Part shown: piece by piece, positions 41,801 through 50,800 of the stretch | Layout: each line of letters starts with the position of its first letter | How positions within the stretch are numbered: the stretch's first letter is position 1 | Origin: Escherichia coli | GTDB lineage: Bacteria > Pseudomonadota > Gammaproteobacteria > Enterobacterales > Enterobacteriaceae | Reading direction: 5' to 3' (one strand) | Assembly (NCBI RefSeq): GCF_044324785.1 | Contig: NZ_CP172127.1 | DNA: 64,000 nt | Made by a program: the position numbers

Positions 41801-44800
41801 GTTTACAGTAATACCATTCGGGTTGGCAATAATCAGATCCGCTTTATCCCCTGCAACTTCCATCATCCCATTAATGGTTGAAGGATTTTTGGAAGTAACC
41901 TCATTCAGGATCACCTTCGCCGACCCGGAGGTCAGATTACTGTTTCCCTGAATATTTCCGGCAAGTGAAGTACTGGATTCATTAGCGCTGTTATTGAAAA
42001 CGACACCATTTTTATCAACGTTTAGGTTATCCCAGATATTATGAGATAAACCGCTACCGTTAGGTTTGTTGATGTCAACGACTGGCACACCATTGGCGTT
42101 ATATACCGTTCCATTTTTTATGACTAATCCCGCCGCTTGAGAAGCTACAGGAAAAGACAACATCATAAGTATAGCAATAGGGGTTAATGCTTTACCCACC
42201 GTTGCTTCCTTACTTAAATTTATCATCGCCACTAACGTTTTCCTTATTGATGCTATTCATTTTGGACATGCAGATCACTTTTGATGACTCACGGAATATC
42301 AGCAAAAATGATTGCGGCAAATCCTATCACCTGGCGCAATAAAAAATCACGAAAAATAAGCTGAAATAAGGACTCAAAAAAACAACTAAGAGTTATTGTT
42401 TTTTCAACGAACGGCGAAGTACCTAACTTACTAAAACACAATAATTTAAAAGTCCCCCATCCTTCCTCCTTGGGTGAAAAAAATCCATTTTAGAGGATGT
42501 CTGAAATGATATGTAGTTTTCTGTACGACATCATTTCAGACATCCGAATAAAACAACAAAGTTGATGAGTTACAATTAATTTAAATCTTGTTATTTGATT
42601 AACAAAGCATCATCATTACTGCATCTTATTCTCTATATCTTTTACGTCGGGGTAGATTCTTTATGGTCATTACGGGCAGGCGACATTTCATTATATTACC
42701 ACTTGCATTCACGCTTGTAACCCTTAAGAGTTATATAAAAAGGAAATAGTTCTTGCTCATGGTATTACTGAGATCGGATTAACCATGAGGTTAGCTATAT
42801 AGAGAACTTTGGCTTTGCGACAATTGGCTTAAGCAGCCACATTATGCCTGGCTTATCGTTGAAAGGGAGAAAGAAGAGCAAAACAGTTTGGCAAGCTTTC
42901 ATTCCCATCTAATAGCAATCACCGCTATACATCATCCCTTAACGTACTCTGGCCTTCATAAAAATGTTATTCTAAATTAAAGATTGTAATGATTTTAATA
43001 ATATTGTTATTATTTTGCAACAAATCAATCTAAAACAATGATTAGTAGCGATTTTTTATTAGTTAAGAGAAATTGTTTTTACAGATTGCGCTATAATTCC
43101 GCTCATTATTCACCACAGGAAAAGCTGAAGTAATCTTAAATGACTGTATTAACCCTTTTCTCCGCTGCCAGCACTCTTAAATATCGTTGTTTTATTCTTA
43201 TAAAAACGGCTTTTTTGAGATAAAAAGTAATAGGTTCAGCCATTATGCAGAATTTACAACCTAAGAAAATCGCAAAAAACACTCTTATTCAGAATAAAAC
43301 TCTGTTCATCATCTTTCGGTAAGAATTAAATTACTATATTACCGTTCAACATCAGTATGAATGAAAATTCAATTGTTATACATGTGATGAATGTCATATA
43401 TTGTGCTCATCGATTGCAGGACATCGCTATTCTTTTAGAGATACAGATATCACGCTGTTACTCTCTGTATAAAGCACACGCAAAGATTAGTTGTGTTACT
43501 GCAGTTGTTATGTCGCATATGGAAAGCCCATTGTTACATCTTTAGTAATAAGTTTTATTCACTTTCAAAATTTTTACTCCATGAAGATGGGCTGTTTTGC
43601 TGCAAGCAATTGAGTTAGTGCAATGAACAAGAACTTACTAACAAGGGTAATTATCATTTCGGATGATCTATATTACCTTCAGGGATTAAGTGCAAAACTA
43701 GGTAACCATTATCGTTTTTTTATTGAGTGTTTTTTTTGTACTCAAAATGCATGTAATAATGACCTAAGTACACTTAGATTTGATAACCGCTTTACCAAAA
43801 ACGTACTTCTTGTCGCAGTGGATGACGTAAGTATACTTGCAAAACTGCCAGATTTGGCCAGGTTTTTAATGATTGTTTCACTCAGAAAGATGAAAAACAG
43901 AAATATCTTCTTTTCACTCTCAGAGCAAACATTCATTAGCCGACATATAAAATTGAATAAACTCATTACTTTGATTAAAAGTACTGATAAAGACCAGCAA
44001 GTCAGACAGGTGACTCTGACAAGGTATGAGTGGGATATCTATTACTTATATTTTAAGATAGATAATAAAAGAATATTGCACACCCTGCTAAAAAAGGATG
44101 TCAAGTACATTAGTCACTATAAAATATCGGTTTTCAACAAGTTTGAAATTGCTTGTGATAGTGATGGCTTTTACATTTTCAAGGCACTTATACAGTTAAG
44201 GAGATTTACCGGTTTTAAAAACGTCAGATTGTATCAATTGCATTAATTATCTCGTTCTATATTAACTCTAAATTTCAAGGATATTAATATGTTTTCTACT
44301 TTCAAAAAAGCAGCTCTGCTGGCAGCTATCGCATTACCTTTTTCTACCATGGCTGCACCGACAGTCACTTTTCAGGGTGAAGTAACCGATCAGACCTGTT
44401 CCGTAAATATCAACGGTCAAACCAATTCAGTAGTATTGCTGCCGACCGTAGCCATGGCTGACTTCGGTGCAACTTTAGCTGATGGCCAGAGCGCAGGCCA
44501 GACGCCGTTTACGGTTTCTGTGTCTAACTGCCAGGCTCCGACTGGTGCAGATCAGGCAATCAACACCACTTTCCTGGGCTACGACGTGGACGCTAGCACG
44601 GGTGTTATGGGAAACCGTGATACCAGCAGCGACGCGGCGAAAGGCTTTGGCATTCAGTTAATGGATTCCAGCACTTCTGGTAACCCAGTAACTCTGGCTG
44701 GCGCGACTAACGTACCGGGTTTGACCCTGAAAGTTGGCGATACTGAAGCCAGCTACGACTTCGGTGCGCGTTACTTCGTTATCGATAGCGCAGCTGCCAC

Positions 44801-47800: not shown

Positions 47801-50800
47801 GCGCTTGTTCCGGCAGTAACGCCCTATCGCTACAACCGTATATCTCTCGATCCACAAGGAATGGATGGCGATGCCGAGCTGGTCGACAGTGAAAAACAGG
47901 TAGCACCGGTTGCAGGTGCGGCGGTGAAAGTAGTCTTCCGTACCCGTCCCGGTAAAGCGCTGCTGATTAAATCCCGCATGGCAGATGGTTCGGAACTGCC
48001 AATGGGAGCCGATGTGCTGGATGAGAATAATACGGTCGTCGGTATAGCCGGTCAGGGGGGACAAATTTACCTCCGCACAGAACAGACAAAAGGCCATTTG
48101 TCAGTTCGCTGGGGTGAAGGCGCTAACGATAGCTGCCAGTTGCCCTTCGATATCAGCGGGAAAGACAGCAATAGCCCTATCATCCGCCTAAATGAAACCT
48201 GTCAGTCTTGATACAGAGAAAACCCGATGTCTAAATCGACTTTTTTACACATTCTGATTAGCTCCATCATATTGGTGGCACTAATACAATCATCCGCCTG
48301 GGCCACTTGTTCTAATACACGTGTCGGACAAACGGAGGACGGAAGATCGGCACTCATTGAGTTCGGAAAAATTAATATGACCGACACCTATTTTGCGCCA
48401 GTAGGCTCGCTACTCGCGACAACGGTCGTCCCTTCCACTAACTACACATCAGGTGGCGCGTCAGGAAGCTCCGTACTGTGGGAATGTGACGCAACAGATT
48501 TGCCAAACATCTATTTTCTGGTCGCTACCAATGGCGATGACCGCGTGGGTGGCTTTCACAATGCAGGCGGGCCTGATGGTCTGAGTGATGTCTATGCCAC
48601 CTGGTTTGCTTTTGTCGGTCTCAAGCAGACCATGGCGGGTGTGACGCTTGGTCGTTACTGGAAGAAAGTGCCCATCACCAGTTATGCCACTCAGGGAACT
48701 AAAATCCAGATCCGTTTACAGGATATCCCTCCTCTTCATGCTGAACTTTATCGTATTAGTACTCTGCCTGATACCGCAGGCGCAACCAGTTACTGCGGTA
48801 ATACCAATACTGATGGCGACGGTGTGGGGTATGCTAAACCCTCCGGCACGCCTTATAACTGCACTCAGCCTAATGCCTATATTCAGCTTTCCGGTACCAG
48901 TGGTATTCCATTTGCTCATGATGAAGTGGGAGAGGACAGTGCGGATCACTATGATTTTTGGGGTGTTGATAATGGTTTTGGTTACGGAATGCGATCGGCA
49001 AATCGACTCTACAACAATGCCACCTGCGTTGCCCGCAGCGCCACGCCGCTAGTATTGCTGCCGACAATTGCAGAAGCACAACTGAATGCGGGCATGGAAA
49101 GTACCGCTAATTTTAATGTCCGCGTCGAGTGCAGTAACTCAGTTCAATCAGGGATTAGCGATACTCAGACAGCATTAGGAATCCAGGTGTCTGAAGGTGC
49201 ATATACAGCAGCGCAAAAACTGGGGATTATCAATAGCAACGGCGGCGTCAGCGCCCTGGTCTCTGATAATTATGACGCAGCAGAGATGGCAAAAGGCGTT
49301 GGGATCTATATTTCTAACAGTGCTCACCCCGATACGGCGATGACGCTGGTTGGTCAACCTGGCATCGCGAAGTTAACCCCCGGAGGAAATGCAGCGGGGT
49401 GGTATCCTGTATTTGAAGGGGCAACATTAGAAGGGGCGACTCACCCCGGATACTCCAGCTATAGTTACTCTTTTATCGCCCGGTTGAAGAAACTGCCAAA
49501 TCAGACAGTCAGTGCGGGAAAAGTGCGGGCAACGGCGTATATATTGGTGAAAATGCAATGAAATCCGTTTTGCTGCTCTTAACCGTCTTGTTCGTACAGT
49601 CAGTGGAAGCCGGCATCATGCCGGCTTCTTCACGGATTATTTATCGCGATGGCGATCGGGAAAAGACACTGATGCTAGTCAATACCAATGACTACCCGGT
49701 ACTGGTGCAAAGTTGGGTAGATAATGGTGAAGGCTCCCCAGAAGCTGCTTCTCCCCCCTTTGTGGTGCTGCCACCGGTTTTCCGCCTGGCAGCGAAACGA
49801 ACCCAAGGGTTGCGGATTATCTATAATCATGACCCACTTCCCCAGGATCGCGAATCTGCATTCTGGTTAAATCTTTATGAAATGCCGCCAGAAACTCCCC
49901 ATCAAGATCCCACACATTTAACGCTGGCAATGAATACGCAACTTAAAATCTTTTACAGGCCTAAATCTGTAACTATGACACCTGAAGAAGCTATGCGTAA
50001 AATAAGTTGGCATCTGGGTAACGACGGCAGCAGCAGCTATATTGAGCTTAATAACCCAACACCACTGAATATCTCTTTCACCTCCATTAGCATTGGGGCT
50101 ACGAAGGTACAGCAAGAAAGCGATATGATGATAAAACCCTTCAGTCAACGACGGTACTGGTTAGCAAGTAATAACGTTAGTGGTGTGGTTGCCGCGACAT
50201 ATCTCGATGATAATGGTGCACAGATAAAGCAACAATTAGCGCAATAATGCTCTGAGTGGTATGTAAACTCATCGCGATGGTTCAACGCTAACGAATAACC
50301 ACTATACCTACCTGAAGTACCGGAAGTGGAGAAATGACAAAATCTCTCCACTCCATTTTCCAGTCAAAACACCTCAACGCAGCCAAAAATCGTTAACGAA
50401 TTGAATATCCACCATCAATAACTAATAGTTGTCCATTGACATAATCTGAAGCGGCACTGGCGAGGAACACCATTGCGCCCATAAGATCCTGTGCCCTTCC
50501 CCAGCGTTGAGCTGGTATACGCCCTTTTATTAACTCTTTTATTTTAGGGTTATTATAAATAATCGCTGTCATTTCACTCACATAATATCCTGGGGCGATA
50601 CCATTGATCTGAATATTATATTCCGCAAAATCATCGGCATACGCTTTGGTCAGCCCCGCTAAAGCATGTTTAGTCGCAGCATACCCTGGAGACCAACGTC
50701 CCCCATGAAATGACAATACAGAACACATATTAATAATTTTCCCTTTTCTTTGCGGGACAAATATATTCAATGCGGCCTGACTCATATCGAATGCAGCATT

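Follow-up and report, generated by a model that had tools for sequence, protein, structure and literature searches.

The loc6 operon of Escherichia coli is a catalogued and named accessory fimbrial operon of the chaperone-usher kind, ordinary in type and functionally unstudied. The stbABCDE operon of Salmonella has the same gene order as loc6 and also encodes two chaperones. Type 3 fimbriae (MrkABCDF of Klebsiella) and the Abp1 and Abp2 fimbriae of Acinetobacter baumannii belong to the gamma4 clade, to which loc6 has been assigned as 'type 3-like'; this assignment rests on a table of Wurpel et al. (Table S2). In Pseudomonas aeruginosa, the CupA genes (cupA1-A5) encode a subunit, a chaperone, an usher, a second subunit, and a second chaperone (PMC3639982). 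O-island 47 of strain EDL933 is the same island as S-loop 71 of strain Sakai. Here, we analyzed a stretch of 64,000 nucleotides of an E. coli genome (assembly GCF_044324785.1, contig NZ_CP172127.1; hereafter the window), in which a set of five genes at positions 44289-50247 is very probably an intact loc6 operon within an island of the O-island 47 type. Side results that are new are the conservation of the gene order across the family, the conservation of the adhesin, the overlap between the adhesin and second chaperone genes, two adhesin alleles in E. coli, the small family of an upstream open reading frame (ORF) of 207 codons, and GrvA/FidL-like neighbors of related operons in Klebsiella and Serratia.

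Identity and gene content of the operon

The operon region is matched in 401 of 5426 complete E. coli genomes, with one copy per genome. The region shares 99.8% nucleotide identity with strain N3 and 96.4% with O157:H7 strains, where the neighboring genes are alike. Positions 41100-50400 are colinear with O157 at 96.8% identity with two gaps, and the usher gene is 97.3% identical to its counterpart in O157 strain 86-24. Compared with the same strain, five of the six ORFs (the operon plus the 207-aa ORF) have nucleotide identities of 97.3-97.9%, and the adhesin gene stands apart with 91.9%. The window and O157 share the locus itself, the five genes with the upstream ORF, and the flanks (OtpA/OtpB, a short-chain dehydrogenase/reductase (SDR), GrvA/FidL, and VmpA), and the annotated neighborhood agrees with O-island 47. 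The orthologue is thus a named operon for which no receptor is known, and not a well-characterized fimbria with a known receptor, the case that the original prediction, made from the sequence alone, had set against itself. A literature search for binding or localization data on loc6 returned none.

All five ORFs of the predicted operon are intact, lie where they had been placed, and have Pfam support. The domain assignments bear out the proposed order of major pilin, chaperone, usher, large adhesin-like subunit, and second chaperone, all on the plus strand. The pilin (44289-44849, 186 aa) matches PF00419 over residues 27-185 (E 7e-15), and the motif APTVTFQGEV directly follows the signal peptide; it thus combines an incomplete immunoglobulin fold with an N-terminal donor strand. 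Its orthologues in related loci are 29-69% identical. The first chaperone (44914-45636) comprises 240 aa if read from the first ATG; in near-identical strains, PGAP places the start at 44935 (233 aa). The usher (45689-48211, 840 aa) contains PapC_N, Usher (E 8e-152), and PapC_C, and its full-length alignment to FimD structures, together with the Pfam domains, delimits an N-terminal domain, a beta-barrel with plug, and C-terminal domains. Since its full-length match to FimD scores 386 bits and that to PapC only 196 bits, the usher is FimD-like rather than PapC-like. It is followed by the gene of the 444-aa adhesin-like subunit (48227-49561), in which PF00419 is confined to residues 263-444, and by the second chaperone (49558-50247, 229 aa), which begins within the end of the adhesin gene, the start and stop codons overlapping as ATGA (49558-49561).

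Both chaperones have PapD_N and PapD_C domains and are two-domain PapD-like chaperones that align over their full lengths to the solved structures of YadV, CupB2, and FimC. The best solved relative is YadV (E 1e-33) for the first chaperone and CupB2 for the second, and the two proteins are 32% identical to each other. The motifs for anchoring subunits are kept in both, as TRI(I/Y) and K(I)FYRP, and in the first chaperone as TR(I/V)I and K(I/L)FYRP, which we take to be the equivalents of Arg8 and Lys112 of PapD.

Conservation across genera and the role of the second chaperone

Serratia, Klebsiella, Kosakonia, Proteus, Pluralibacter, Erwinia, Pseudomonas, Acinetobacter, and Dyella, among others, have adhesin homologues that are 52-69% identical. 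In a motif scan that covered 100,044 genomes, one per species, 68 loci were recovered from other genera; together with three loci fetched earlier, they gave a comparison set of 70 loci. The order pilin, first chaperone, usher, adhesin, second chaperone is kept in 54 of them. The dual-chaperone layout on which the original prediction had dwelt is therefore real, but it is a widespread trait of the family, found also in P. aeruginosa CupA, and no peculiarity of this strain. Across the loci, each chaperone finds its best match in its positional counterpart, which indicates that the duplication is old and that both copies have been retained. Of the proteins of the family, the adhesin is conserved best: its mean pairwise distance of 0.49 is lower than those of the usher (0.52), the pilin (0.53), and the chaperones (0.58-0.60). 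Within the adhesin, conservation is higher in the receptor-binding domain (63.5%) than in the pilin domain (57.1%), contrary to what is usually expected of adhesins.

The function of the second chaperone is less clear-cut. In 29 of 52 loci, the stop of the adhesin gene and the start of the chaperone gene share 1 or 4 nt, and the same kind of overlap is found at the other junctions in 0 of 38, 1 of 52, and 6 of 53 loci. This pattern suggests coupled synthesis and a chaperone dedicated to the adhesin. A mirror-tree analysis did not support such a dedication, as specific covariation of the adhesin with the second chaperone was not found (partial r -0.11). With this negative result, the view that the second chaperone most likely serves the adhesin stands at about an even chance. 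It might instead not be specific to the adhesin but act as a general chaperone, as a redundant paralogue, together with the usher, or on another substrate such as OtpA, and this alternative is a shade below even in probability. In the mirror-tree, both chaperones fall together with the usher (r 0.84-0.87), and the anchoring motifs retained in both chaperones are general ones. However, the overlap with the adhesin gene is far more frequent than that at any other junction, and the low identity between the two paralogues, each of which forms a separate orthologous line, argues against redundancy. As to OtpA, its linkage with loc6 recurs in Kosakonia, but most family loci have no OtpA neighbor. 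In the Kosakonia sacchari locus (L008), an OtpA homologue (approximately 1-2158, minus strand; E 1e-167 against the first 400 aa) is located upstream and an SDR homologue (12539-13369, plus strand) downstream of a loc6-like operon, and an OtpA-loc6-SDR block is thus common to different genera.

The gene order differs in several Herbaspirillum loci (L061, L062, L066, L071, and L072). Here pilin, first chaperone, usher, and second chaperone share a strand, with the adhesin homologue placed divergently on the opposite one.

The two-domain adhesin and its alleles

The 444-aa protein, which had been described as resembling a tip adhesin, has no sequence relative that could be found in the PDB. An AlphaFold2 model built with 64 homologues has a pLDDT of 91.6 and a pTM of 0.82, and Foldseek relates this model to the two-domain adhesins LpfD, CupB6, CsuE, and PapG and to pilins. 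The protein is thus predicted to be a two-domain adhesin, with an N-terminal receptor-binding domain of the MrkD/Abp class, which has the fold of MrkD and Abp1D and about 80 extra residues, and with a C-terminal pilin domain. The structure prediction that had been proposed as a check accordingly returned a receptor-binding type of fold, and the C-terminal pilin domain is present. As in other two-domain tip adhesins, the N-terminal receptor-binding domain takes the place of the donor strand. The mature protein begins at approximately T27 and has a cysteine at mature position 2, which is reminiscent of the C2-C48 disulfide reported for Abp1D and Abp2D. A second pair of cysteines, C190 and C212, falls into the extra region.

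In E. coli, the adhesin is also the part of the operon that varies most clearly. The window carries an allele different from that of O157, with 27 of 28 amino acid changes falling into residues 27-247, within the receptor-binding domain, and with only 77-85% identity in codons 1-50 and 151-250. Among complete E. coli genomes, the segment encoding the receptor-binding domain (48227-49015) forms two groups, one of 47 sequences with at least 95% identity to the window and one of approximately 350 sequences at about 87.6%. The latter includes O157:H7 and O145:H28, and the remainder of its operon differs by only about 2.5%. The positions that vary between the alleles coincide with the variable columns of the whole family (conservation 0.51 vs 0.75, p 5e-7). 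The two groups look like recombinant alleles that differ in surface loops. Concrete constructs for glycan arrays and binding tests could be made from the two alleles of the predicted MrkD/Abp-type binding domain.

Leader region and putative regulators

The region upstream of the operon had been described as an AT-rich stretch of 1.4 kb. The composition profile confirms that it is AT-rich, with a guanine-cytosine (GC) content of 31-38% over approximately 42000-44250 as compared with 46-55% in the operon, but the stretch extends over about 2.0 kb if the 207-aa ORF is included, 1.39 kb of which are intergenic. This intergenic leader between otpA and the 207-aa ORF (42233-43622; 31-38% GC) presumably is the promoter and regulatory region. 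No Rfam family matched the locus. Of the silencing by H-NS invoked by the original prediction, the one sign seen is the AT-richness, and a search of the literature for a paper connecting H-NS with loc6 found none. A perfect 16-nt inverted repeat, GGATGTCTGAAATGAT ... ATCATTTCAGACATCC, with a 19-nt loop, lies in the AT-rich spacer at 42495-42545, approximately 260 nt upstream of the otpA start. An invertible promoter switch was considered for the leader and discarded: apart from this hairpin only imperfect, distant inverted repeats were present, and there was no recombinase gene.

The ORF of 207 codons (43623-44246, plus strand), which had been interpreted as a weak LuxR-like regulator, is real and conserved. 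It is under purifying selection, with a ratio of nonsynonymous to synonymous polymorphism (pN/pS) of 0.07 in comparison with O157. The LuxR label has weak support, from a similarity that is coherent but sub-threshold. Curated families in Pfam (up to E 10), NCBIfam, PHROGs, and the PDB gave no match, and when 1.84 billion representatives were searched exhaustively with HMMER, only 11 relatives, of about 200 aa, came up. These have the motifs VIIISDDxYYLxGL and LTxxE..VIFNYF..K..SYYKRSVYxK in common. Within the related loci, which contain 3267 ORFs, the ORF matched best to response regulators of the GerE type located beside Pseudomonas operons, and the alignment is in the register of the helix-turn-helix. 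A hidden Markov model of the helix-turn-helix of these neighboring GerE regulators scored 9.0 bits on the 207-aa ORF, a value reached by none of 2000 shuffles in a test that was chosen post hoc. Pfam GerE (PF00196) is found sub-threshold in three of ten family members (best E 0.0031, below the gathering score), the family profile aligns in register to the DNA-binding domain of RcsB (E 0.35-1), and a bona fide GerE protein of 208 aa encoded beside the K. oxytoca operon has an N-terminal motif in common with the 207-aa ORF. A degenerate helix-turn-helix of the LuxR/GerE type at approximately residues 128-180 is thus plausible from the sequence. Comparisons of the ORF with CsgD, a RocA1-like regulator, plasmid sequences, and the PDB yielded nothing or noise (de novo TIM barrels).

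It counts against the LuxR-like assignment that every match behind it is sub-threshold and that the shuffle test was post hoc. The ORF might then encode an unrelated small protein, or be a conserved ORF of another function within the leader. The failure to match curated families at any threshold, an hhalign probability of only 4%, and the poor E values of the PDB profile hits would fit such a protein. However, four independent weak signals (neighboring GerE regulators, Pfam GerE, RcsB, and the K. oxytoca motif) fall into one register, and in contexts that are unrelated, relatives of the ORF are found directly upstream of genes for adhesins, one of them 110 bp upstream of another chaperone-usher operon. 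A function other than transcriptional regulation appears rather unlikely. One relative (28% identity) is located between an EAL gene and two genes for YadA-type trimeric autotransporters (locus L076, 3411-12597), and a ToxR-like gene lies divergently in the vicinity. The mix of regulators equals that of O-island 47, here beside a different kind of adhesin.

Further candidate regulators are encoded on the other side of the operon. A ToxR-like protein with a Trans_reg_C domain and its partner (51862-53179, plus strand), 1.6 kb downstream of the operon, were identified from the literature as GrvA and FidL of O-island 47. GrvA/FidL is a published ToxR-like co-component system known to control the enterocyte effacement locus (LEE) as well as acid resistance. 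VmpA, an EAL protein and cyclic di-GMP (c-di-GMP) phosphodiesterase, follows at 53281-54891 on the minus strand. GrvA-like/FidL-like pairs are also found in the loci of K. oxytoca (L017, 1303-2617, minus strand) and Serratia sp. AKBS12 (L005, 563-1892, minus strand), where they are divergent and 0.5-1.2 kb upstream of the pilin gene, and EAL genes adjoin 14 of the 70 loci. These neighbors suggest that loc6 is controlled by GrvA/FidL and c-di-GMP. As a hypothesis by analogy with PsaE and PsaF, GrvA/FidL would be a candidate regulator, and loc6 may be a direct target of GrvA. PsaE and PsaF control psaABC. They have also been listed as a co-component pair. The link, if true, would tie a known virulence regulator to the adhesin encoded next to it. 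GerE-type response regulators together with EAL proteins flank related operons of Pseudomonas and Herbaspirillum (L002, 10037-17299; L043, L052, and L053; L061-L063, L066, L071, and L072), and hybrid histidine kinases also follow in Pseudomonas citronellolis (L002), in a Roc-like arrangement.

Proposed expression and assembly

Directly after the pilin stop codon lies a 12-bp hairpin with a partial U-tract (44856-44884, plus strand; dG -22.1 kcal/mol, z -5.5), and a strong hairpin occupies the equivalent position in 53 of 54 related loci. It presumably acts as a partial terminator or mRNA stabilizer by which the surplus of pilin relative to the assembly genes is set. Transcription would start in the AT-rich leader, and the hairpin would let the pilin mRNA accumulate over that of the assembly genes. 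The subunits would cross the inner membrane via Sec, be capped by the PapD-like chaperones through donor-strand complementation, and be handed over to the FimD-type usher. As the adhesin lacks an N-terminal donor strand, we infer that it enters first and ends at the tip, followed by the polymer of the 186-aa pilin, which would form by donor-strand exchange. The tip would thus bear the enlarged MrkD/Abp-type receptor-binding domain. The second chaperone may be made in step with the adhesin through the overlapping stop and start codons.

Several points weigh against a functional fimbria. The usher gene is frameshifted in strain N3, the closest genome, and some O157 and O145 genomes have an usher interrupted by an insertion sequence (IS) or a truncated operon. 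Deletion of loc6 in strain Sakai left the binding to spinach roots unchanged. Promoter-like sites in the leader are no commoner than in shuffled sequences, and the production of a fimbria by loc6 is a prediction from the genes. That the operon is a cryptic relic, intact in sequence and never expressed as a fiber in nature while it decays in the species, would fit the lost ushers, the missing root phenotype, and an AT-rich leader compatible with silencing, but is very unlikely, and in the window all six ORFs are intact compared with strain 86-24, with pN/pS values of 0.03-0.15.

An intact loc6 operon, predicted to build an adhesive fimbria, is thus the preferred reading. A wider picture would join an ancient and widely distributed two-chaperone lineage, a conserved ligand that is not host-specific, a dedicated and translationally coupled second chaperone, a local switch kit, and a shift in specificity, marked by the two alleles, from the O157/O145 lineage to the remaining carriers or the reverse; taken as a whole, this combination is improbable. 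If it were true, the high conservation of an enlarged MrkD-like adhesin would imply a conserved ligand, for example a glycan of plants, fungi, insects, or a matrix, or else self-association in biofilms. The switch kit would consist of the LuxR-like 207-aa protein, the GrvA/FidL sensor, and the VmpA phosphodiesterase, and loc6 would be the original target of GrvA, comparable to psaABC and PsaE/PsaF. In other respects, loc6 is a standard chaperone-usher system that leaves the general picture unchanged. As one of the accessory fimbriae associated with O157, loc6 may have a role in the colonization of cattle, humans, or plants.

Island setting

The operon had been considered an acquired fimbria, and this is borne out by its location on an acquired island adjoining tRNA-Ser(GGA) (serX, 21078-21165), which marks the island border. 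The neighborhood of the O-island 47 type comprises a fatty-acid/polyketide-like cluster, the OtpB/OtpA two-partner secretion system, the operon, the SDR gene, GrvA and FidL, and the EAL protein VmpA. In the strain analyzed, codon 140 of otpB (36712-38331, minus strand), the gene of the TpsB transporter of this secretion system, is an in-frame stop. The annotation of strain N3, which is 99.8% identical, gives otpB as intact (1620 nt). At approximately 54987-56443, the annotation of N3 indicates a diguanylate cyclase remnant that abuts a 5'-truncated pgaC followed by pgaD. With pgaA and pgaB absent and pgaC truncated, the poly-N-acetylglucosamine (PGA) operon seems to be disrupted at the right border of the island. 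To the left of the island, an ORF of 216 aa (15533-16183) and its neighbors (13400-17900) resemble the curli (csg) locus; from its size and position, we take this ORF to be csgD. A match to the small RNA ES056 is located just upstream, at 15386-15477.

Comparison with known fimbrial systems

Despite the 'type 3-like' label, loc6 does not encode type 3 fimbriae proper. Its usher shares only 32.5% identity with MrkC, the PDB gave no match in sequence between the adhesin and MrkD, and the gene set is another one, with two chaperones and no MrkF-like minor subunit. With such an usher, 'type 3-like' is to be understood as a clade label and not as membership in type 3. The receptor-binding domain likewise differs from those of Mrk, Abp1, and Abp2, with which it has 12-14% identity, by the additional 80 or so residues and the C190/C212 pair.

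The likeness to CupA concerns the order of functions and was drawn from the literature by layout only. Neither the motif scan nor three homology searches with the adhesins of E. coli, P. citronellolis, and P. helleri retrieved anything from P. aeruginosa, and CupA4 is thus probably not a close relative. Similarly, no Salmonella locus or protein was returned by the motif scan or the three adhesin searches. The curated models that score highest are nevertheless those of the Salmonella Stb set, namely the usher PRK15248, StbD, and StbB. The usher reaches 702 bits with PRK15248, its best NCBIfam model (cutoff 996). The StbD model spans the whole 444-aa adhesin (E 8e-34) with 117 bits (cutoff 363), and the StbB model gives 117 and 110 bits (cutoff 550). 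Judged by these sequence models, which stay below their equivalog cutoffs, Stb appears to be a related lineage and not an orthologue of loc6. CupA and Stb are therefore relatives of loc6 at most, CupA being alike in the order of functions and Stb in its curated models and gene order.

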